Virus record (IMG/VR): IMGVR_UViG_2563366825_000018
Source: a virus
Taxonomy: Duplodnaviria; Heunggongvirae; Uroviricota; Caudoviricetes
Reading direction: 5' to 3' (one strand)
Length of the DNA stretch: 39,003 nucleotides
Numbering within the stretch: the stretch's first letter is position 1; each line of letters starts with the position of its first letter. Below the pieces are notes generated by a model that was not told the DNA's origin, made no database searches, and saw only the letters and a program-made list of their open reading frames with translations. The position numbers were made by a program, and so were the translations under genes. Positions 5,580 through 36,383 of this stretch are shown here, in pieces.

Positions 5580-6433
5580 GCACTATCCTGAAATGGGCGG
5601 GAAATAAAACCGCCATTATGCCAGAACTGAAAAAATACCTTCCTGCTGGCCCGCGACTGGTTGAACCTTTCGCGGGTTCCTGTGCTGTGATGATGGAAAC
5701 GGATTATCCCAGCTATCTGGTTGCGGATATTAATCCTGATTTAATCAACCTCTATAAAAAGGTTGCCGCTGATTGTGAATCGTTTATATCTCGCGCCAGA
5801 GTTTTATTTGAGATCGCAAACAGGGAGGTGGCTTATTACAACATAAGGCAGGAGTTTAACTGCTCAACTGAAATTACTGATTTCATGAAAGCGGTATATT
5901 TCCTGTATCTCAATCGTCACGGTTACCGTGGTTTATGTCGCTATAACAAGAGCGGGCATTTCAACATTCCCTACGGTAATTATAAAAATCCGTATTTCCC
6001 TGAAAAAGAACTTCGCACATTTGCAGAAAAAGCCCAGCGAGCAACGTTTATCTGCGCCAGCTTTGATGAAACGCTGGCGATGTTGAAGGCGGGAGATGTG
6101 GTGTATTGCGATCCGCCATATGACGGTACGTTTTCCGGCTATCACACTGATGGTTTCACTGAAGATGACCAGTATCATCTGGCATCCGTTCTTGAACATC
6201 GGTCATCAGAAGGACATCCGGTCATTGTTTCTAACAGTGACACATCCCTGATCCGTTCGCTGTATCGCAATTTTACTCACCACTATATCAAGGTAAAACG
6301 CAGCATCGGTGTGGCAGCTGGCGAGGGTAAATCAGCAACAGAAATCATTGCTGTTTCCGGGCCGCGCTGCTGGATGGGATTTGATTATTCGCGTGGCGTG
6401 GATAGTTCTGCCGTGTACGGAGTACGTGCATGA
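5576..6433 (+). CDS. dam: DNA adenine methyltransferase (Dam-like)
   Basis: [11 protein letters not shown]..., EPFAGSCAV (AdoMet motif), DPPY motif, [15 protein letters not shown] all parallel E. coli Dam; RBS GGAGG; start is the internal ATG of track ORF 5516-6433. Confidence 0.9.
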
Positions 6434-8844
6434 GTCATGCCGATATGAACAACTGCTGCGGCTTTAACGAGGCTGCCGCAGCATTCTCATGGAACAGCCC
6501 GAAAAAGGCCATTAACCCTTATCTGGACCCGGCGGAAGTTGCGCCGGTTTCTACGCTTTCAAACCTGATCACTCTGTACGCTGCCGATAACGAGCAGGAA
6601 CAGTTGCGCCGCGAGGCACTGAGTGATCAGGTCTGGGAGCGTTATTTCTTTAATGAATCACGTGATCCTGTCCAGCGCGAAATGGAGCAGGATAAGCTCA
6701 TTAGCCGGGCAAAGCTGGCGCATGAGCAGCAGCGTTTTAATTCAGACATGGTCATTCTGGCGGACGTCAACGCCCAGCCTTCCCATATCAGCAAGCCGCT
6801 GATGCAACGTATTGAATACTTCAGCAGCCTGGGCAGGCCAAAGGCTTATTCCCGCTATTTACGTGAGACGATTAAGCCATGTCTGGAACGACTGGAGCAT
6901 GTACGCGACAGTCAGCTATCTGCATCTTTTCGCTTTATGGCAAGCCATGAAGGGCTGGACGGCCTGCTGATCCTGCCTGAAATGAGTCAGGATCAGGTGA
7001 AACGCCTGTCCACCCTGGTAGCTGCGCATATGAGTATGTGCCTTGATGCAGCTTGTGGTGATTTGTATGCCACCGATGACGTTAAGCCAGAAGAAATCCG
7101 CAAGACATGGGAAAAGGTGGCAGCGGAAACCCTGCGTCTGGATGTCATCCCACCTGCGTTTGAGCAACTCCGTCGGAAAAGAAACCGCCGTAAACCCGTG
7201 CCCTATGAACTCATTCCGGGTTCGCTGGCACGTATGTTGTGCGCCGACTGGTGGTATCGGAAATTATGGAAGATGCGTTGCGAATGGCGGGAAGAGCAGT
7301 TGCGCGCTGTTTGCCTGGTCAGCAAAAAAGCATCTCCTTATGTCAGCTATGAAGCCGTGATGCATAAACGTGAGCAGCGCCGTAAGTCGCTGGAGTTTTT
7401 CCGTTCTCATGAACTGGTGAACGAAGACGGCGACACGCTGGACATGGAGGATGTGGTAAACGCCAGCAGCAGCAACCCTGCGCATCGCCGCAATGAGATG
7501 ATGGCCTGTGTTAAAGGTCTGGAGCTTATCGCGGAAATGCGCGGTGACTGCGCCGTTTTCTACACTATCACCTGTCCGTCGCGTTTCCATTCCACGCTAA
7601 ATAACGGCAGACCAAACCCGACCTGGACAAACGCGACGGTAAGACAAAGCAGCGATTATCTGGTCGGCATGTTTGCTGCATTTCGTAAGGCGATGCACAA
7701 AGCCGGGTTGCGCTGGTATGGCGTGCGGGTGGCTGAGCCGCATCATGATGGCACAGTTCACTGGCACCTGTTGTGTTTCATGCGCAAAAAAGACCGCCGT
7801 GCCATCACTGCATTACTGCGTAAGTTTGCCATCCGTGAAGACCGCGAGGAGCTGGGCAATAACACTGGGCCGCGCTTTAAGTCTGAGTTGATTAACCCGC
7901 GCAAAGGAACGCCGACAAGCTACATCGCGAAATATATCAGTAAGAACATTGACGGTCGTGGTCTGGCTGGCGAGATCAGCAAGGAAACGGGTAAATCTCT
8001 GCGTGATAACGCTGAATACGTGAATGCCTGGGCGTCTCTGCATCGTGTTCAGCAATTCCGCTTCTTTGGTATTCCGGGGCGTCAGGCTTACCGTGAACTT
8101 CGCTTGCTGGCTGGTCAGGCGGCAAGGCAACAGGGTGACAAAAAAGCAGGTGCGCCGGTACTGGATAACCCGCGTCTTGATGCCATTCTGGCTGCTGCTG
8201 ATGCTGGTTGTTTTGCCACCTACATCATGAAGCAGGGCGGCGTACTGGTTCCCCGTAAATATCACCTCATCAGAACCGCTTATGAAATCAACGAAGAGCC
8301 GACCGCCTATGGCGATCACGGCATTCGTATTTATGGCATCTGGTCACCCATTGCAGAGGGCAAGATCTGCACTCATGCAGTGAAGTGGAAAATGGTTCGT
8401 AAAGCCGTTGACGTTCAGGAGGCGGCAGCCGACCAGGGCGCTTGCGCCCCTTGGACTCGTGGCAATAACTGTCCCCTTGCTGAAAATTTGTACCAACAAG
8501 GGAAAGACAAATCAGCTGATGGAGATACCAGAACGGATATCACCCGCATGGATGACAAGGAGTTGCACGATTACCTGCACAGTATGAGCAAAAAAGAGCG
8601 CCGGGAACTGGCAGCAAGGTTACGCCTGGTGAAACCGAAACGGCGTAAAGACTATAAACAGCGAATTACAGACCATCAGCGACTGCAGCTCGTGTATGAA
8701 CTGAAGTCCAGGGGATTTGATGGCAGCGAGAAAGAGGTCGATTTACTGCTTCGCGGCGGCAGTATTCCGTCAGGAGCAGGCCTGCGTATCTTCTATCGGA
8801 ACCAGCGTTTGCAGGAAGATGATAAGTGGCGAAACCTGTATTAA
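6430..8844 (+). CDS. A: replication initiation protein A (rolling-circle endonuclease, P2 gpA family)
   Basis: 804 aa; [10 protein letters not shown] (HuH metal motif) and YIAKYISKN tyrosine motif; start overlaps the dam stop. Confidence 0.93.
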
Positions 8845-9686: not shown

Positions 9687-10346
9687 TTATGATTTCATTT
9701 TTTCGAATTTATTTTTTTGCAAAACAATATCTGTAGCTTCAATGGATTTTTTAAGTGAATCTAAAAGACGTTGACGTCTCTTAATTTTAGAGAAAGAAAC
9801 CCTCATAGCAGCCTCTTGTTTGGGCTTGATGTCCACCAGTACATAATATGGTTTTCTGGCTCCGCGCTTAATGTTGTTACGCTTAAAACCTTTTCCTCTA
9901 ATCGAAGCATTGGAATCAGCGATTTGTACAGGTAAAAACTCAAAACCACGTGTCGTCACTTTTGAACGAAATCTTTTAAATATTCTTGGTTCATGCTGTG
10001 CTCTCTTTGGTGTAGTCGAAAATAAAAAATGTTTCACGACAGTGGATTTTATCTCAGGATATTTTTCGAGATATTTTGAATTCAAGAGTGAGATGAATTT
10101 TTCAACTGGACTTATGTCAAGGTAAGAGCCGAACTTACTCTCAAAATACTTATCAAAGCTTTGGTTTTTATTATCATTAACAAACTTTGAAATATCAATT
10201 AGAAGTTCTTTCACGCCATTCTGACCAACTTCAGAAAGATATAAATCAATAATCTTTCCAAGATCATCTGAATCAAGTTCGCATGCGGTATCTTGATTGA
10301 AGTAGGACCGTATGAAATTATCTAGTTTAGTATATTCTTTTGACAT
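9687..10346 (-). CDS. hypothetical protein, acidic N-domain and very basic C-terminal half; second gene of two-gene cargo operon
   Basis: 219 aa; AT-rich; start 3 nt after upstream gene stop; C-terminal KRNNIKRGARKPYY, KIKRRQR stretches suggest nucleic acid binding. Confidence 0.7.
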   Translation of the reverse strand: MSKEYTKLDNFIRSYFNQDTACELDSDDLGKIIDLYLSEVGQNGVKELLIDISKFVNDNKNQSFDKYFESKFGSYLDISPVEKFISLLNSKYLEKYPEIKSTVVKHFLFSTTPKRAQHEPRIFKRFRSKVTTRGFEFLPVQIADSNASIRGKGFKRNNIKRGARKPYYVLVDIKPKQEAAMRVSFSKIKRRQRLLDSLKKSIEATDIVLQKNKFEKMKS

Positions 10347-10349
10347 ATA

Positions 10350-10814
10350 TCACCCCTTAACAGGATATGCAGTGAGGATGAAATGAGGCATTCCGTTAAA
10401 ATTTCCAACTTTCATAACTAAATTAATTCTTTTTGCAGTTAATATATTGTTTGGATCATCACGTTCAACGTAAGTGCCTACATCCTGTTCAATGTCTAAT
10501 TCCCTTGAAAATCTAACATCTGCGCGATTGGGATCTTTATACCACTCTGTAAATTCCATAAGAAATGAATTGAACCACTCGGTAGCTGATAGTTCTGCAA
10601 CTGATAAGTTTGTAAATGTTGAAGATACACGGAGTTTAGGAAATCGACCTATCAGGTAATTGGCATCCTTGCCAACATGTCTTCTAATTGTGTGTCCACC
10701 AGGTCCAGAATCCGAAGCTGCTTCATGAACTTTCAATTTGACGGGAGAGTATCCTGAGGAGTTTACTGTTGTCGATGTTGTAGCATGCTGTAGTTGTGAT
10801 GTAGAAGAAAACAT
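10350..10814 (-). CDS. hypothetical protein with GHTIRRHVGK motif; first gene of two-gene cargo operon
   Basis: Start ATG with GGAGGG RBS (internal to track ORF 10350-10865); 154 aa; no family confidently recognised. Confidence 0.65.
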   Translation of the reverse strand: MFSSTSQLQHATTSTTVNSSGYSPVKLKVHEAASDSGPGGHTIRRHVGKDANYLIGRFPKLRVSSTFTNLSVAELSATEWFNSFLMEFTEWYKDPNRADVRFSRELDIEQDVGTYVERDDPNNILTAKRINLVMKVGNFNGMPHFILTAYPVKG

Positions 10815-11073
10815 GTTCACCCTCCATGTTTTAGAATTGAGGTACAGTATATCGACGCTGCACATAACTTGTTTAAATATTTAGCCCTATGGTACACAAC
10901 CATATTGCTTTTTATGCTGTAACTTCTGCTCTTCGTCCACAGCGGATTTTTATCGTTGTAAACCAGTATGTTTCGTTTTTCAAGCAGTTATCCGATAGGG
11001 ATTTTCACTTCCCTTGGCAGCGCATGACTATGCTGCATGAATCCGCATGATCGTTTGAGGATCGTTTTTGCTG

Positions 11074-11097
11074 AGGCCCGCCAGAACTGGCGGGCTT
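11074..11097 (+). other. GC-rich hairpin with T-tail (gcccgcc agaact ggcgggc ttt)
   Basis: Inverted repeat seen in sequence just left of the cos-like motif. Confidence 0.4.
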
Positions 11098-11141
11098 TAG
11101 CTTATGTTATGCAGGTGCATGAAAATCACTCCATAAAGCGG

Positions 11142-11160
11142 GCAGGCGTGGCGGGGATAC
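11142..11160. other. candidate cos (cohesive end) site
   Basis: GGCGTGGCGGGGA matches the first 13 nt of the 186 cohesive end as I recall it; lies between the rightmost early cargo and the retron/Q end. Confidence 0.4.
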
Positions 11161-11215
11161 GAGCGCGCGCTATCACGTAAAATAGGCAAAATACTTCTGG
11201 AAAACAGAAAGTTGA

Positions 11216-13162
<1,947 letters not shown>

Positions 13163-16137: not shown

Positions 16138-16970
16138 ATGACAGTGAAAGCAAAGCGTTTTCGCATCGGGGTGGAAGGTGCCACCACCGACGGACGCGAA
16201 ATCCAGCGTGAATGGCTGGAACAGATGGCAGCCAGCTACAACCCCGCAGTGTATACCGCGCTGATTAACCTTGAGCACATCAAGTCTTATCTGCCGGACA
16301 GCACCTTTAACCGCTACGGCAAGGTGACGGCGCTGTTTGCTGAAGAAATCACGGAAGGCCCGCTGGCAGGCAAGATGGCGCTGTATGCCGACGTTGAGCC
16401 AACGGAGTCCCTGGTGGAGCTGGTGAAAAAGGCCAGAAATTATTCACCTCTATGGAAGTCAGCCCGAAGTTCGCTGATACGGGCAAAGCCTACCTGGTTG
16501 GCCTGGCTGCCACTGATGATCCAGCCAGTCTGGGTACGGAAATGCTGACATTCAGCGCCAGTGCAGCCCATAACCCGTTGGCAAACCGCAAGCAGAATCC
16601 CGCCAATCTTTTTACCGCTGCAGAGGAAACGGTGATCGAACTGGAAGAAGTCCAGGATGACAAACCGTCCCTGTTTGCCCGCGTCACGGCGCTGTTCACC
16701 AAAAAAGAGCAGTCAGACGATGCCCGGTTCTCTGATGTGCATAAGGCCGTGGAGCTGGTCGCCACTGAGCAGCAGAACCTGAGCACACGCACCGAAAAAT
16801 CCCTGGCTGAACAGGAAGAACGCCTGTCTGAGCTGGAGACTGCTCTGCAGGAGCAGCAAACCGCCTTTAAAGAACTGGTGAATAAGCTGAGTCATGAAGA
16901 CAGCCGCCAGGACTACCGCCAGCGTGCAACAGGCGGTAACGCCCCCGCTGACACTCTGACCAATTGCTGA
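16138..16970 (+). pseudogene. O: capsid scaffold gpO, interrupted by an apparent -1 frameshift in an A-run near 16436-16440 (or a sequencing error)
   Basis: Track ORFs 16138-16548 and 16452-16970 are consecutive parts of a P2 O-like protein in different frames; adding one A to agaaat restores a continuous [16 protein letters not shown] reading. Confidence 0.6.
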
Positions 16971-16986
16971 TGGAGCACAAAACCTG

Positions 16987-18045
16987 ATGAAGAAGAATAC
17001 CCGCTTTGCTTTTAACGCTTACCTGCAGCAGCTGGCGCGTCTGAACGGTGTGGCAGTTGAAGAACTGTCCAGCAAGTTCACCGTGGAGCCGTCTGTACAG
17101 CAGACGCTGGAAGACCAGATCCAGCAGTCCGCCGCTTTCCTGACGCTGATTAACGTCACGCCAGTGACTGAGCAGTCCGGTCAGCTGCTGGGGTTGGGTG
17201 TTGGTAGCACCATTGCCGGAACCACTGACACCACCGCGAAAGAGCGTGAACCTGTCGATCCTACGCTGATGGTCGATGTGGAATACAAATGCGAGCAGAC
17301 CAACTTTGACACGGTACTGACCTACGCGAAGCTGGACCTGTGGGCGAAGTTTCAGGATTTCCAGGTGCGTATCCGTGACGCCATCGTGAAACGTCAGGCA
17401 CTGGACCGCATCATGATCGGCTTTAACGGCGTGAAGCGTGCGAAAACCTCCAACCGTAGCGAAAACCCGCTGCTGCAGGATGTGAATAAAGGCTGGCTGC
17501 AGAAAATCCGTGAGGATGCACCGGATCACGTCATGGGCAGCACCACCACGGGTGGTGAAACCACACCGGGTGCGGTGAAAGTCGGGAAAGGTGGCGAATA
17601 TGCCAACCTGGACGCCGTAGTGATGGATGCCGTCAATGAGCTTATCGACGTGGTTTACCAGGACGATGACGATCTGGTGGTGATTTGCGGGCGTGAACTG
17701 CTGTCTGACAAGTATTTCCCGCTGGTCAACAAAGAGCAGGAAAACAGTGAAAAACTGGCTGCCGATATGATCATCAGTCAGAAACGCATGGGGGGCCTGC
17801 AGGCCGTGCGTGCGCCGTTCTTCCCGCCGAATGCGCTGCTGATCACCCGTCTGGATAACCTGTCCATCTACTGGCAGGAAGACACCCGCCGCCGTTCAGT
17901 TATTGACAACCCGAAACGTGACCGGATTGAAAACTTTGAATCTGTTAACGAAGCCTATGTGGTTGAGGACTACCGCTGCGCCGCACTGGTGGAAAACATC
18001 CAGATTGGCGACTTCAGCGCCGCCGCAGCAGAAACCGGAGCGTAA
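16987..18045 (+). CDS. N: major capsid protein (gpN)
   Basis: 352 aa; P2 N-like. Confidence 0.92.
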   Translation: MKKNTRFAFNAYLQQLARLNGVAVEELSSKFTVEPSVQQTLEDQIQQSAAFLTLINVTPVTEQSGQLLGLGVGSTIAGTTDTTAKEREPVDPTLMVDVEYKCEQTNFDTVLTYAKLDLWAKFQDFQVRIRDAIVKRQALDRIMIGFNGVKRAKTSNRSENPLLQDVNKGWLQKIREDAPDHVMGSTTTGGETTPGAVKVGKGGEYANLDAVVMDAVNELIDVVYQDDDDLVVICGRELLSDKYFPLVNKEQENSEKLAADMIISQKRMGGLQAVRAPFFPPNALLITRLDNLSIYWQEDTRRRSVIDNPKRDRIENFESVNEAYVVEDYRCAALVENIQIGDFSAAAAETGA

Positions 18046-18048
18046 TCC

Positions 18049-18696
18049 ATGAGCCTGAGTCCCGCACGGCAGCATCGCCTGCGCGTTCAGGCTGAACAGG
18101 CCGCCCGTGAGGGCGGCAGTGTTCGCCACGCGTCGGGCTATGACCTGATGCTGCAACTGGCGGAAGACCGCCGCCGTCTCAAGGGCGTTCAGTCCACGGT
18201 GAAAAAAGCGGAAATAAAGGTGGAGCTGCTGCCGAAATATGCCGCCTGGGCGGAGGGCGTCTTGGCTGCCGGAGGCGCTCAACAGGATGACGTGCTGATG
18301 TACGTGATGCTGTGGCGCATTGATGCCGGAGATTATGCCGGGGCGCTGGAGATCGGGCGTCATGCCCTGCGTCATGGCTGGGTGATGCCGCTGGGTAACC
18401 GCAACGTGCAGACCGTGCTGGCAGAAGAAATGGCAGATGCAGCGCAGAGCGCAATGCTTGCCGCCACCGGCTTTGATGCCGATCTGTTGCTGCAGACGCT
18501 GGAGCTGACAGACGGTCTGGATATGCCAGACCAGTCACGGGCGCGTCTGCATAAAGCGATTGGCGCTGTCCTGAGTGAAAGCAATCCGGCTTCCGCCCTT
18601 AATCATCTCAACCATGCGTTACAGCTCGATCCCCGCTGTGGCGTGAAAAAAGACAAACAGCAGCTGGAGCGCAGACTGCGCAATGACAGCTGCTGA
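18049..18696 (+). CDS. M: terminase small/endonuclease subunit (gpM)
   Basis: 215 aa at the P2 M position. Confidence 0.85.
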   Translation: MSLSPARQHRLRVQAEQAAREGGSVRHASGYDLMLQLAEDRRRLKGVQSTVKKAEIKVELLPKYAAWAEGVLAAGGAQQDDVLMYVMLWRIDAGDYAGALEIGRHALRHGWVMPLGNRNVQTVLAEEMADAAQSAMLAATGFDADLLLQTLELTDGLDMPDQSRARLHKAIGAVLSESNPASALNHLNHALQLDPRCGVKKDKQQLERRLRNDSC

Positions 18697-21949: not shown

Positions 21950-22876
21950 TCAAAACAATCTCAATAAATTATGATCAATCGTAAGCAAGTTGGAGATAAC
22001 AAGTTTGCTATTATCAATATTGAATTTTTCTAATATTGCTGCTACAGCACTGGGGTAAGGTTGTGAAGCATATGGAGAAATGTATATTTTTTCGATTAGC
22101 TTTACAGGATCTGTTTTTATTCTTATCCCCTTGGGAGTATAGTTTTCGATGTCGCTATTAATAATTTTTGGTGTTATGGATAAACGTACTTCATTTTCAT
22201 GTGAAAAAGCTTTTCGTTTTAAAAAAGGAACCATTCTTCCGTTCACGACGCAATCTTCAGATGTTAGTTTTTCATCGAAATAATCAATGTATTTTACTTC
22301 ACTAATAGAGATAATCTCTTCAGATTGAAGTGAATCTATCAAGCGTGATATTGATGTTTGAATTGCTATTCCTTTGTTAGCATCTGAATACAAACGCCAC
22401 ATTCCTTCTGACTCATGTTCATTTTGATGCCAACAATTCACTGTGACGGAGTTTAAAATCTTAAAATAGATAGATTCTATTTTTGGTAATTGTGTATCCA
22501 TCATTGTTTGCAACTTGGTGATTTCTGTTTCGGCTTTTTCATTAGAGATTCTGCCTAATAGTTCGTTTTCCCTGATACGCTCTACGGTATCATTGAAATA
22601 TGATTGTATATCATTAAATTTACTTTTGACGATGCTTGCCCATGCATTTAAGGCAACCTTAGGTAATAACCCCTCATATGGATCGCTATTGCTGTAAGAA
22701 CTAAGCGGAGAAAAATATAGCTCTTCTCTGGATAATATATCGATGAATTTATCAAGAGACATATAGCGCCACAGTTTTGTTTCAGGTTTTAAATTTGGAC
22801 TAATTTGGAATTTATTCATTGTTTTTTTATCAGCATTGTATAGTGAGTGATACAAACCGCAATATTTATACTTCAT
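21950..22876 (-). CDS. DUF2971-family protein, accessory gene inserted antisense between S and V
   Basis: LWRYMSLDKFIDILSREELYFSP, CWHQNEHESEGMWRLYSDANKGIAIQ and KRKAFSHENEVRL fit DUF2971 signatures; AT-rich; start at ATG 22876 with GGGGTG RBS (alternative ATG at 22819). Confidence 0.75.
   Translation of the reverse strand: MKYKYCGLYHSLYNADKKTMNKFQISPNLKPETKLWRYMSLDKFIDILSREELYFSPLSSYSNSDPYEGLLPKVALNAWASIVKSKFNDIQSYFNDTVERIRENELLGRISNEKAETEITKLQTMMDTQLPKIESIYFKILNSVTVNCWHQNEHESEGMWRLYSDANKGIAIQTSISRLIDSLQSEEIISISEVKYIDYFDEKLTSEDCVVNGRMVPFLKRKAFSHENEVRLSITPKIINSDIENYTPKGIRIKTDPVKLIEKIYISPYASQPYPSAVAAILEKFNIDNSKLVISNLLTIDHNLLRLF
22837..22854. promoter_or_regulatory. late promoter dyad TGT-N12-ACA upstream of V
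   Basis: TGTatagtgagtgatACA; overlaps the 5' end of the antisense DUF2971 ORF if that ORF starts at 22876. Confidence 0.5.
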
Positions 22877-22901
22877 AATCACCCCATGTCAATCTATAGG
22901 C

Positions 22902-24731: not shown

Positions 24732-25329
24732 TCTGCTGCCACCGGGTTCAACTTCACTGGAGCGCCGGCTGGCGCAGACCTGTAGCGGGATTTCTGATCT
24801 GCAGGTGCCGCTGCGTGACTTGTGGAATCCGGCAACCTGTCCGGTCAGTTTCCTGCCTTATCTCGCCTGGGCGTTCTCTGTGGATCGCTGGGATGAGGGC
24901 TGGACAGAAAGCGTCAAGCGCCAGGTGGTGAAGGATGCTTTTTATATTCATCAGCATAAAGGGACCACCAGTGCCGTGCGGCGGGTGGTGGAGCCGTTCG
25001 GCTTTCTGATCCGCATTATTGAGTGGTGGCAGACCGGAGAGACACCGGGCACGTTTCGTCTGGATATCGGCGTGCAGGACCAGGGCATCACTGAAGATAC
25101 CTATCTGGAACTTGAGCGACTGATAAGCGATGCCAAACCATGTAGCCGTCACATGATCGGCATGTCCATCAACCTGCAGACCAGCGGCCCGCATTGGGTG
25201 GGAGTCGCCAGCTATCTTGGCGAAGAAATCACGATCTATCCGTATATCAACGAAACAATTATTTCTGGCGGCACCGCGCATGAAGGCGGGGCGGTCCATG
25301 TTATTGACACAATGAGAGTGAATCCATGA
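24724..25329 (+). CDS. I: baseplate protein I
   Basis: 201 aa at the P2 I position. Confidence 0.85.
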   Translation: MNSLLPPGSTSLERRLAQTCSGISDLQVPLRDLWNPATCPVSFLPYLAWAFSVDRWDEGWTESVKRQVVKDAFYIHQHKGTTSAVRRVVEPFGFLIRIIEWWQTGETPGTFRLDIGVQDQGITEDTYLELERLISDAKPCSRHMIGMSINLQTSGPHWVGVASYLGEEITIYPYINETIISGGTAHEGGAVHVIDTMRVNP

Positions 25330-26735
25330 GCACAAAATTTTATACCCTGCTGACGGATATTGGCGCGGCGAAACTTGCCAGCGCCGCCGCGCTCGGTGTG
25401 CCTTTAAAAATTACCCATATGGCGGTCGGCGATGGCGGCGGAACATTGCCAACGCCGGACGCAAAGCAGACAGCATTAGTAAATGAGAAACGCCGGGCTG
25501 CGCTGAATATGCTTTATATCGACCCGCAGAACAGCAGCCAGATTATTGCTGAACAGGTGATCCCTGAAAACGAGGGCGGTTGGTGGATACGTGAAGTGGG
25601 CCTGTTTGATGAGTCCGGGGCATTGATTGCCGTGGGCAACTGCCCGGAAAGCTATAAGCCGCAACTGGCTGAAGGCAGCGGGCGCACCCAGACCGTGCGC
25701 ATGGTGCTGATTACCAGCAGTACGGACAATATCACCCTGAAAATCGACCCTGCTGTAGTGCTGGCAACCCGTAAATACGTGGATGATGAAGTCCTGGAAT
25801 TAAAGCTGTATGTGGATGACCAGATGAGAAACCACATTGCCGCACAAGATCCTCATACCCAGTATGCGCAGAAACATAATCCGACATTTACCGGAGAACC
25901 AAAAGCGCCGACGCCTGCAGCAGGAAATAACACCACGCGGATTGCGACCACTGAGTTTGTTCAGGCCGCTATTACTGCTCTGATTAACGGTGCGCCAGCC
26001 ACGCTGGACACACTGAAAGAAATTGCCGCAGCCATTAACAATGACCCGAAATTCAGTACCACCATTAACAATGCGCTGGCACTAAAAGCGCCGCTGTCGA
26101 GTCCGGCACTCACCGGAACGCCAACAGCACCTACTGCGGCGCAGTCGGTCAACAATACACAGATTGCCACTACGGCTTTTGTGAAATCGGCGATTGCAGG
26201 AATGGTGGGTTCTGCACCTGCGGCACTGGATACACTGAACGAACTGGCGGCGGCACTGGGGAATGATCCGAACTTTGCCACGACAATGCTTAATGCGCTG
26301 GCAGGTAAACAACCGCTGGACAATACGCTTACCAATTTGAGCGGAAAGGATGTATCTGGTCTTCTCACATACCTTGGTTTGGGAGAAGCGGCGAAAAGGG
26401 ATGTGGGTACAGGAGAAAATCAGATACCGGATATGTCAGCCTGGAAAAGAAATCCGAGTTCTAATCGCTGGAGAAAATTGCCTGATGGAACCATCATTCA
26501 AATGGGAATATCAGCATCAGGACCATTAGGCTCACCTGTAAATATCACCCTGCCGATATCTTTCAGCAATACCAATTATTGTGTTGTTGCATCGTACGAT
26601 AATGCACGGTCAGGTGTGTCAACAATGGTTAGTTTTGCAGCATTGCCTGTTTCACCATCGCAATTTTCCCTGATGTCATCTGTGACTGAGCAAGGAATAA
26701 ATCCTTTTGCTTACTGGATTGCTTTTGGAGATTGA
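25326..26735 (+). CDS. H: tail fibre protein H; C-terminal part lies inside the invertible segment
   Basis: 469 aa; conserved N-terminus MSTKFYTLLTDIGAAKLA; two tandem ~55-aa fibre repeats; crossover site within the coding sequence. Confidence 0.9.
   Translation: MSTKFYTLLTDIGAAKLASAAALGVPLKITHMAVGDGGGTLPTPDAKQTALVNEKRRAALNMLYIDPQNSSQIIAEQVIPENEGGWWIREVGLFDESGALIAVGNCPESYKPQLAEGSGRTQTVRMVLITSSTDNITLKIDPAVVLATRKYVDDEVLELKLYVDDQMRNHIAAQDPHTQYAQKHNPTFTGEPKAPTPAAGNNTTRIATTEFVQAAITALINGAPATLDTLKEIAAAINNDPKFSTTINNALALKAPLSSPALTGTPTAPTAAQSVNNTQIATTAFVKSAIAGMVGSAPAALDTLNELAAALGNDPNFATTMLNALAGKQPLDNTLTNLSGKDVSGLLTYLGLGEAAKRDVGTGENQIPDMSAWKRNPSSNRWRKLPDGTIIQMGISASGPLGSPVNITLPISFSNTNYCVVASYDNARSGVSTMVSFAALPVSPSQFSLMSSVTEQGINPFAYWIAFGD
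26362..26387. repeat. left inversion crossover site (gix/pix-like) inside H
   Basis: ttctcacataccttggtttgggagaa; 14-bp exact inverted match (ttggtttgggagaa) with the site at 28212-28237. Confidence 0.7.
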
Positions 26736-26738
26736 TAA

Positions 26739-27158
26739 ATGGACAGATACTTCTATTCACAAAAAGAAAATGGTTTTTTTACCGATTTAAATAAAGCACC
26801 TTCAGATGCTGTTGAGATAACCACGGATGAATGGCTGTTACTACTGGATGGTCAGGATAATGGCATGAAAATAGTCAGCAATCAGGAGGGATATCCGGTT
26901 TTGACAGAGCAACCACCTTTATCAAAAGAAAACCTTATTGCATTGGTGGAGTTGAAAAAAAGAAAACTTATTAATGAAGCCAACGAGCACATGAACAGCA
27001 GACAATGGCCAGGTAAAGCGGCTATTGGTCGTCTGAAAGGTGAGGAACTGGCGCAATATAATTTATGGCTGGATTATCTGGACGCACTGGAACTGGTTGA
27101 TCCCTCCAGTGCTCCAGATATTGAATGGCCTACGCCTCCGGCAGTTCAGGCCAGATGA
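26739..27158 (+). CDS. G: tail fibre assembly protein (gpG/Tfa), cassette in expressed orientation
   Basis: 139 aa; C-terminal WPTPP motif. Confidence 0.88.
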   Translation: MDRYFYSQKENGFFTDLNKAPSDAVEITTDEWLLLLDGQDNGMKIVSNQEGYPVLTEQPPLSKENLIALVELKKRKLINEANEHMNSRQWPGKAAIGRLKGEELAQYNLWLDYLDALELVDPSSAPDIEWPTPPAVQAR

Positions 27159-27732
27159 CATCCGGTGCGGTGCTGGTATCTGTTGCCGTCACCGCGTCAA
27201 TGTAATCCAGCGCAGCGTTAAGTCGGGCGGTTTCTGCCTGCGTCAGATTTCGTCCGGCCTGTAATTTCAGTTGAATCAGACTGATAGAAGCCATTGCTGT
27301 ATCAATCAGCGACTGGCGCTGTGCTTCTGCTGCATCTACTACGGCGCTATGCTGTGCCTCGGTATCCGTCACCCATTTCTCACCATCCCATTTATCGTAT
27401 GGCGTTAACGGGGCGATAGTGGTTGTATTATCAGGGTAATCACCCGGTGCTGTGATTTCTTTTGATTCTCCTGTTTCGGTGCTAAAGACAATTTCACCGC
27501 GATGGTCTGGTACATATTCCCATGAGTTAAAATCTGCAGAGCGGCAGATTGCATAACCAGCTTTGTAGGTGCCTGGAGCATCTAAACAGGAATATGCCGG
27601 AATGCCGACACCAACAGCAAGATATTCAGTTGAAGCTGAAATATACTCCCGACTCATGACGTCAAAGTTATAAACAGTAATTTCTCCTGCCATAGTGGCA
27701 ATTAATTCACTGTTTAATTCTGCGTTATTCAT
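27130..27732 (-). CDS. alternative tail fibre assembly protein (silent orientation)
   Basis: 200 aa; C-terminus ...DTSTAPDVIWPELP matches Tfa end motif; convergent with G. Confidence 0.8.
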   Translation of the reverse strand: MNNAELNSELIATMAGEITVYNFDVMSREYISASTEYLAVGVGIPAYSCLDAPGTYKAGYAICRSADFNSWEYVPDHRGEIVFSTETGESKEITAPGDYPDNTTTIAPLTPYDKWDGEKWVTDTEAQHSAVVDAAEAQRQSLIDTAMASISLIQLKLQAGRNLTQAETARLNAALDYIDAVTATDTSTAPDVIWPELPEA

Positions 27733-28237
27733 TATGCAGCCCTCACAATATAGTTAAAAGCGACATTTCGTGGGCGTGTTTCATTCGCACCTGCAGGTTT
27801 AGTCGTTGCCGCAACAACACCACCCTCTGTAATAGCCGGGTTAGGAATTGGGTAATTATCGAAGTCAATGGCCGGAGACAGGGGCGTGATTTGTTTTAAA
27901 ATCGTGGTGCCTGTAAAACTTTCCAGAGTCTGGTCGTTAGTTCGTGAAGTCCAGATTCCCCAATAGTGGTTATGACTGACAATCGCACCGTCCTGAAGCG
28001 TTAATAATCCCCTTCCGTTATCCACTCCACGTCCGTCATCCCAGCCACGAATAAACTCACCGCGTAAATCAGGCAATTTATTTGTCGGGTAAGCCTTTGC
28101 CAGTTCCGGGTATTCTTCAGCAGAAAAAGCCGCACCATTGCATTTCAGCCAGCCTGTCGGCGGAGTGGCGGAAGGCCACGGAACAGGCACACCAACAGGT
28201 AATGCAGAGCCTTCTCCCAAACCAACGTTTAAGAAAA
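27732..28237 (-). CDS. alternative tail fibre C-terminal cassette (promoterless; fuses to H constant region after inversion)
   Basis: Track ORF 27732-28265; residues IFLNVGLGEG are encoded by the crossover site and match LTYLGLGE in H. Confidence 0.75.
28212..28237. repeat. right inversion crossover site (gix/pix-like)
   Basis: ttctcccaaaccaacgtttaagaaaa, about 55 nt upstream of the invertase start; inverted relative to 26362-26387. Confidence 0.7.
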
Positions 28238-28292
28238 TGCAGCGATTACGACTAACTGGCATCATCCCCGGTTTTTATTCAGGGGATTGATC

Positions 28293-28859
28293 ATGCTTAT
28301 TGGCTATGTACGCGTGTCAACAAATGACCAGAACACCGATTTGCAACGTAATGCACTGAACTGCGCGGGATGTGAGCGGATTTTTGAGGACAAAATCAGT
28401 GGCACTAAGTCCGACAGACCGGGGCTTAAAAAACTGCTCAGGACACTATCGGCAGGTGACACACTGGTTGTCTGGAAGCTGGACAGGTTGGGGCGCAGTA
28501 TGCGGCATCTCGTTACGCTGATAGAAGATCTGCGCCAGCGTGGCGTGAATTTCCGAAGCCTGACTGACAGTATTGATACCAGTACCCCAATGGGCCGTTT
28601 CTTTTTTCATGTCATGGGGGCCCTGGCTGAAATGGAACGCGAACTGATAGTTGAACGTACCAGGGCAGGGCTGGCTGCAGCTCGCGCCAAAGGCAGAGTA
28701 GGTGGACGCCGTCCTAAGTTGACTACCGAACAGTGGGCACAGATTGGACGTTTACTCGAGGCCGGAGAATCAAGACAGCGTATTGCACTGATTTTTGATG
28801 TGGGCGTTTCTACCATTTATAGAAAATTTCCGGCGAATGAGAACAATGAATCGCCCTGA
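28293..28859 (+). CDS. pin: serine DNA invertase (Pin/Gin/Hin/Cin family)
   Basis: MLIGYVRVSTNDQNTDLQRNAL...DTLVVWKLDRLGRSM...PMGRFFFHVMGALAEMERELI is near-identical to my recollection of e14 Pin; catalytic Ser in YVRVST. Confidence 0.93.
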   Translation: MLIGYVRVSTNDQNTDLQRNALNCAGCERIFEDKISGTKSDRPGLKKLLRTLSAGDTLVVWKLDRLGRSMRHLVTLIEDLRQRGVNFRSLTDSIDTSTPMGRFFFHVMGALAEMERELIVERTRAGLAAARAKGRVGGRRPKLTTEQWAQIGRLLEAGESRQRIALIFDVGVSTIYRKFPANENNESP

Positions 28860-30753: not shown

Positions 30754-31056
30754 ATGAGCGATAAGCAGACTGAAAAGACCATTCTACTGGATACCCCCAT
30801 CATGCGTGGTAAAACAGAAATTACCGAAATTGTGCTGCGTAAACCGCAGTCCGGTGCGCTGCGCGGTACACGCCTGCAGGCCATTATGGATATGGATGTG
30901 AACGCGATGATGACCGTGATCCCCCGCATCTCCAGCCCGGCGCTGACTGCACAGGAAATTGCAGAGATGGACCCGGCAGATCTCACTGCCATGTCGGTTG
31001 AGGTTGTCACTTTTTTGTTGAAGAAGTCGGTGCTTGCCGGTTTACCGACAGCCTGA
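30754..31056 (+). CDS. E: tail assembly chaperone E
   Basis: 100 aa at the P2 E position; contains slippery TTTTTTG near its 3' end. Confidence 0.85.
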   Translation: MSDKQTEKTILLDTPIMRGKTEITEIVLRKPQSGALRGTRLQAIMDMDVNAMMTVIPRISSPALTAQEIAEMDPADLTAMSVEVVTFLLKKSVLAGLPTA

Positions 31057-31190
31057 CGGTTGACGATCTGGTGGCAGATATCGCCACCATTTTTCACTGG
31101 CCGCCATCCGTTACTGACGTTATGCCGCTGACCGAAGTGCTGGAATGGCGGTATAAAGCGATTCAGAGAAGCGGGGCTAACGATGAGTGA
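30754..31190 (+). CDS. E': E+E' tail assembly chaperone produced by programmed -1 frameshift at TTTTTTG (31011-31017)
   Basis: Slippery heptamer seen; -1 frame stays open to TGA at 31188-31190, overlapping the T start; mirrors P2 E/E'. Confidence 0.65.
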
Positions 31191-36224: not shown

Positions 36225-36271
36225 CAACAAAAAACCCATCAACCTTGAACCGAAATGGCGGGGTTGATGGG
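36225..36271 (-). terminator. rho-independent terminator downstream of ybjL
   Basis: 10-bp stem cccatcaacc/ggttgatggg with T-run on the minus strand (plus strand caacaaaaaa). Confidence 0.55.
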
Positions 36272-36383
36272 CTCCACAAAATGGGGACATCAAAGAAAAG
36301 CAGTGGCACTAATTAAGACTGATGCCCTGCGGAAAAGTTCTGCGGTTGTGCAAAAAAATTTCATTTTCAGGGCAACTTCAGTT

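Follow-up and report, generated by a model that had tools for sequence, protein, structure and literature searches.

The window, as the whole 39,003-nt stretch analysed is called here, carries a P2/186-like prophage that opens within the integrase gene and closes with ogr, followed by the host genes rybB and ybjL. The prophage is integrated between rcdA and rybB/ybjL in Escherichia coli KTE14 and a few close relatives, and its right attachment site is probably located at or beside rybB. Gene O, the subject of this analysis, occupies the position expected of a P2-type head module, with the terminase gene diverging from it upstream and the capsid gene directly downstream (Table 1). At this position there is no uninterrupted open reading frame (ORF) of about 277 to 284 aa that would bear both a serine nucleophile and a C-terminal scaffold domain. 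Two overlapping forward ORFs are found instead, the second being offset from the first by a -1 shift of frame. The 136-aa product of the upstream ORF matches positions 2-96 of the Phage_GPO profile (PF05929; E = 9.8e-45), and the 172-aa product of the downstream ORF (16452..16970) matches positions 102-268 (E = 2e-56). A one-base repair fuses these into a single match of 277 aa spanning positions 2-268 of the 268 in the profile (E = 4.7e-113), and thus a single-nucleotide frameshift divides gene O, as the earlier note on this DNA had held in placing the gene in two frames.

The frame breaks after codon 98 and the upstream ORF terminates at 16546-16548. The earlier note had counted 100 native N-terminal residues in this product; only 98 are native and the other 38 of its 136 residues are read out of frame. 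Of the protease domain, the 5' fragment retains the larger part but not the serine; it was deposited from E. coli KTE14 as the "hypothetical protein" EOU68989.1. The remainder of the gene, in the -1 frame, encodes the region of the serine nucleophile together with the linker and the C-terminal scaffold domain, and it includes an ATG at 16542 that, in the sequence ATGCTGA, overlaps the stop codon TGA of the upstream ORF. Within the GPO family, the locus counts as a pseudogene and not as a functional member.

Table 1. Positions in the window of gene O and its parts, the flanking head genes, and the cargo and boundary features of the prophage
Feature	Position	Strand	Remarks
DUF4041 + T5orf172/MUG113 ORF, 558 aa	1136-2812	-	Between integrase and CI repressor
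CdiI_2 immunity protein	9687-10346	-	Paired with the CdiA-CT RNase A-like gene
CdiA-CT RNase A-like protein	10350-10865	-	Divergent pair in cargo block
Reverse transcriptase (RVT_1), 646 aa	11222-13162	+	Z1323HEC0475 homologue annotated retron Ec67 family RT/endonuclease
Terminase large subunit, gpP-like, 588 aa	14229..15995	-	Intact; divergent from O
5' fragment ORF of O, 136 aa	16138..16548	+	98 native gpO-family residues, 38 out-of-frame residues, then TGA
Lesion, A5 run (A6 in intact homologues)	16426..16430	+	GTG AAA AAA GGC to GTG AAA AAG GCC
Remainder of gene O, -1 frame	16431..16970	+	Codons G99 to C277 and stop
TCT serine codon	16449..16451	+	Aligns with P2 gpO S107; in frame with neither fragment start
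142-aa ORF	16542..16970	+	Start picked by gene finders; deposited as EOU68990.1
Major capsid protein, gpN-like, 352 aa	16987..18045	+	Intact; follows O in the operon
DUF2971 protein	21950-22882	-	Between tail genes S and V; cargo hotspot, common to the sister prophage EH09-18-41
RybB sRNA gene	36226-36304	-	Rfam RF00110, 105 bits; about 80 nt beyond ogr, beside ybjL

The remainder of the prophage is entire. When the 49 CDS of the sister prophage EH09-18-41, which occupies the same site, were compared by tblastn, all 48 apart from O proved to be full length in the window, and the description of the other modules as intact in the earlier note is upheld; the sister GPO protein alone returned two window matches, of its residues 1-100 and 97-277. 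The terminase and the capsid protein are each 100% identical to the sister copy. The two prophages differ at spots known to vary, namely the immunity repressor, the cargo hotspots and a tail-fibre invertible segment that is present in opposite orientation.

The cargo deserves a brief description. One block (9687-13162), situated between a DinI-like gene and the portal gene, holds the reverse transcriptase gene and the CdiA-CT/CdiI pair, and at this spot the sister prophage has DUF4145 and SieB genes instead. The DUF4041 ORF likewise sits at a variable cargo position and is absent there from the sister prophage. A search with Rfam returned neither a retron ncRNA nor any RNA element near O at gathering score, RybB being the sole match in the window. 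The DUF2971 gene differs by one base in a 5' T run, which shifts its apparent start and gives an ORF of 310 aa against the annotated 289 aa. In the tail-fibre region (25326-28859), both strands bear alternative segments for the C-terminus of H as well as tail-fibre assembly genes, and an invertase-like gene of the recombinase family (28293-28856) comes after them; the segment has an orientation or composition unlike that in the sister prophage. The small terminase gene (18049-18696) has lost 3 nt in frame from a TGCTGCTGC repeat (18148-18152), giving 215 aa against 216, and this loss is common to all KTE14-type loci. In the assembly GCA_958320165.1, the replication endonuclease gene A (6430-8844) has a 21-nt in-frame insertion at about 8453 (811 against 804 aa).

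The lost base can be placed by comparison with intact genes. In a megablast search of 5,426 complete E. coli genomes, and of phage records, the 901-nt O query found over 1000 homologues and, among those listed, each spans 902 nt against the 901 nt of the query. Three annotated intact O genes (E. coli Z1323HEC0475, phage 500465-1 and E. coli EC444) were aligned with the window, this being the comparison that the earlier note had asked for, and all three have A6 where the window has A5. The alignment leaves the window with a single gap, GTG-AAAAAGGCC, which falls inside GTGAAAAAAGGCC, so that the run that lost the base is GTGAAAAAAGGC. If 16138-16431 is joined to 16431-16970, with position 16431 read twice, the product is a 277-aa protein 100% identical to the intact WP_024240751.1, an allele present on 378 contigs. 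The native reading across the junction is KKGQKLF (VKKGQK) and not KKARKLF. The loss of one nucleotide from a short A-run, as first proposed, therefore stands, but the interval given for it (16431-16455) does not, as the A5 run ends one nucleotide outside. Insertion of an A into gccagaaat (the AAA at 16437-16439) does restore a long ORF as had been claimed, but one that reads KKARKLF and is separated from the native protein by A99G and R100Q; this placement was ruled out because the gap relative to the homologues lies in the upstream A run and the family has GQ, not AR.

The shortened run is seldom encountered. The exact A5 80-mer was found in 0 of the 1039 RefSeq complete E. coli records that have this locus, where all matches are below 99% identity and each of those listed spans 81 nt against the 80-nt query. 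In IMG/VR the A5 40-mer had one match, in a noisy contig discussed below, against at least 120 for the A6 41-mer, and individual intact O alleles are each represented on 370-430 contigs, against 18 for the truncated product. No exact match to the window exists among the RefSeq complete E. coli genomes, the best being 97.8% identical over 92% of the first 20 kb. A5 thereby presents itself as a rare, lineage-restricted allele. The restored O protein is a widespread intact allele with no further substitutions, which makes the inactivation of O a recent event.

A broken frame need not silence a gene if ribosomes can mend it. The codons AAA AAG (16426-16431) form an A_AA.G tetramer, and a slip of -1 upon it would produce the wild-type VKKGQK protein and permit some head assembly from a leaky gene; a second reading of the base at 16431 does indeed recover the protein of the intact allele at 100% identity. 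No other tetramer shifts as readily in E. coli as A_AA.G (PMC4066793), and a second study is reported to describe AAA-AAA sites able to correct 1-nt deletions carried by E. coli expression constructs (PMC1851650). Tetramers without a stimulator, however, shift on average at 0.147% against a background of 0.112%, and they reach 5.6% only with a strong pseudoknot (PMC4066793). No such stimulator was found downstream of the A run in the window, where the 69 nt folded are no more stable than shuffled versions of them (-16.5 kcal/mol; shuffle mean -14.2; z = -0.75). Stimulatory Shine-Dalgarno spacing for -1 shifts is 10-14 nt, as known from work on dnaX, and the single GGAG upstream is separated from the run by about 6 nt, too close to serve. 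Nor is the two-frame arrangement conserved (A5 in 0 of 1039 RefSeq records, and once, in the noisy contig, against at least 120 A6 in IMG/VR), and the protein at stake is a scaffold required in bulk. Taken together, the O locus possesses a slippery motif in frame 0 and lacks both the stimulator and the conservation of a programmed -1 frameshift, and for these two reasons it is not one. Because no stimulator is present, the expected rescue of gpO by a -1 slip is about 0.1%, too little to matter for a scaffold protein; a trace of full-length gpO may still be made, yet a leaky gene that supports head assembly is very unlikely. The genuine programmed frameshift of the window, of the P2 type, is the T_TTT_TTG at 31011-31017, in frame 0 of the tail-chaperone gene E (30754-31056), with E' (31071-31187) in the -1 frame.

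Runs of six A are hotspots for error, and the earlier note had left room for a homopolymer mistake of sequencing or assembly, under which the strain would truly be A6 with an intact O. Such an artefact would be expected to stand unreproduced and in the company of other homopolymer indels, and the reverse is found, with the A5 on about 20 contigs from several accessions and zero other indels. The KTE14 contig KE136665.1 (GCA_000407805.1) matches the window at 100% identity for 20,411 nt, and an exact-protein look-up found the identical 136-aa product on 21 contigs. The A5 is also present in GCA_958320165.1, which differs from the window by 6 substitutions and the 21-nt in-frame indel in gene A; these differences make it an isolate distinct from KTE14. 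Logan contigs of SRR652381, SRR12115003/20/22/24/25/27 and SRR22050100 likewise bear the A5 with 0-5 substitutions and zero indels relative to the window, although SRR652381 may be the read set of KTE14 itself and would then be independent of the assembler, not of the library. Over the 2-20 kb covered, KTE14-type A5 loci have no other homopolymer indels, and in them O alone is broken, with the portal, terminase, capsid and remaining genes of normal length. The window itself contains 59 homopolymers of at least 6 nt, yet the A5 of O is its sole frame-breaking difference from clean relatives, from which it departs in length at only two other places, the 3-nt repeat of the small terminase gene and the T-run base of the DUF2971 gene.

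What lends the error some plausibility is the wider record of truncated products. A cluster at 90% identity gathers 97 distinct members of the 136-aa type with a common junction, KKARNYS, and might be read as a recurrent natural hotspot. One other allele of this cluster was followed (P0005, loci L014-L021), along with the IMG/VR contig L023, and these A5 assemblies proved to be noisy, with 2-36 further one- or two-base homopolymer deletions that include the other A6 of O at 16701, a G6 at 17790 and an A6 at 18646, and with portal, terminase, capsid and small-terminase genes split differently in each. As the examined assemblies are full of homopolymer deletions, they provide no evidence for a recurrent real mutation, and the hotspot was rejected; the 97-member cluster of "proteins" appears to be at least partly a sequencing artefact. 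Noisy assemblies of related prophages extend to two chromosome-scale contigs of about 5.1 Mb (GCA_949813155.1 and GCA_052953255.1), and the A6 run of gene O is repeatedly affected by homopolymer deletion in noisy public assemblies. For the window, an error of this kind is very improbable. The inactivating mutation, which the earlier note had offered as the other choice, is favoured by the recurrence of A5 in separate assemblies and contigs clean of further indels, and there is little doubt, as far as assemblies and contigs can tell, that the one-base deletion is real.

The idea that A5/A6 is a phase-variable switch, by which the majority of cells would keep a locked prophage with its defence cargo and rare revertants would make phage, would draw on the lesion lying in a homopolymer that one slippage event reverts, on an otherwise undamaged prophage and O coding sequence and on several cargo genes that may benefit the host, but it has next to no probability given an A6 shorter than typical contingency tracts, an A5 restricted to a single small lineage when over 1000 related prophages have A6, and clean A5 contigs that are uniformly A5 with no mixed state seen among them. 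A looser proposal holds the A5 prophage to be "locked but not dead", in that a -1 slip or an A5-to-A6 reversion lets a few cells make phage; this too has only a very small chance of being correct. If true, the lysogen would stably retain a prophage with candidate defence cargo, namely the retron Ec67-type reverse transcriptase, the DUF4041/T5orf172 protein, the CdiA-CT RNase with CdiI and the DUF2971 protein.

The reading preferred here is that a genuine single-base deletion inactivates O in an otherwise intact prophage, which is very probably the case. Most plausibly, replication slippage was the cause of the deletion, shortening A6 to A5 and shifting the frame of a gene of the gpO scaffold/maturation-protease family. 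Translation from the native start would then add 38 wrong residues to 98 correct ones before the stop, in a product without the catalytic serine and without the C-terminal scaffolding domain. In P2, residues 1-141 of gpO constitute the maturation protease, which is deficient in O(S107A), residues 195-284 act as an internal scaffold without which P2 procapsids do not assemble at all, and viable virions of P2 and P4 alike depend on gpO (PMC7552001). In the alignment with P2 gpO, S107 coincides with the serine of TSMEV, the codon for which lies five codons past the lesion. Since procapsids require gpO in stoichiometric quantity, and the capsid, scaffold and portal proteins must be cleaved by its protease, a frameshift that removes both the serine and the scaffold domain should leave the prophage unable to make infectious heads, and virion production should be lost. 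The prophage would also have no helper role for P4-type satellites, barring complementation or reversion.

Some products of the broken gene may still be formed. We infer that a free C-terminal scaffold fragment could arise by termination-reinitiation at the ATG at 16542, and a downstream fragment could alternatively start from the ATG at 16452, which has no visible Shine-Dalgarno sequence. Either would amount to a scaffold domain without protease, from which at best procapsid-like shells unable to mature might be built. As the P2 annotation has O leading the O-N-M-L operon, some polarity on the downstream head genes is possible. Another P2-like prophage, if the genome holds one, could serve to complement O.

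Homopolymer frameshift of a structural gene is the commonest early step of prophage decay, and the O lesion is ordinary decay of this sort, nothing new in kind, and raises no fresh question of biology. It is useful for annotation and prediction. EOU68989.1 and EOU68990.1 of KTE14 can be recognized as the halves of a frameshifted gpO pseudogene, the KTE14 prophage should be scored as probably head-assembly-defective despite its complete look, and this retron-carrying prophage is predicted to be probably not inducible to infectious particles. It also illustrates cleanly how prophage domestication begins, with one essential structural gene lost and all else untouched, as well as a practical control for telling a real frameshift from an error, by asking whether neighbouring homopolymers or genes are affected too and whether independent read sets agree.

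The window can be set beside several known systems. As at sites of the dnaX and IS type (A_AAA_AAG, A_AA.G), AAA AAG stands in frame 0 and a -1 slip leads to the correct frame; the window differs from these sites in having G as the first base of the heptamer, no stimulatory structure and no conservation. Intact sister prophages at this site include EH09-18-41 (NZ_CP063503.1) and Z1323HEC0475 (NZ_CP148326.1), which are 99.7-99.8% identical over the O region and retain A6; in both, an intact 277-aa capsid scaffolding protein of the GPO family is annotated, and the cargo at the hotspots differs. EH09-18-41 shares the integration site (rcdA ... ybjL) and gene order of the window, and Z1323HEC0475 has an O protein identical to the repaired window protein and also a retron Ec67-family reverse transcriptase. 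Among phage records in the collection, the highest identity over the O region is about 96.7%, and one of the records at this level, Escherichia phage 500465-1, is a Wadgaonvirus (Peduoviridae) and not a member of the P2 genus Peduovirus.

The P2 gpO gene occupies the same place, divergent from the terminase gene P and first in the O-N-M-L operon, and its product is 47-48% identical to the window O from end to end and shares the TSME serine motif with it, at 284 aa against the 277 aa of the intact allele of the window gene. The P2 gene is uninterrupted, whereas the ORF in the window is broken after codon 98 and encodes no full-length protein. The consequences of such a loss are known from P2 O amber and O(S107A) mutants, in which loss of gpO blocks the production of viable P2 and P4 virions and S107A abolishes maturation cleavage (PMC7552001). 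The 5' fragment of the window lacks that same serine, by way of a natural frameshift unlike the point and nonsense mutants of the laboratory, and the frameshift goes beyond O(S107A) in stripping the scaffold domain as well from the primary product.
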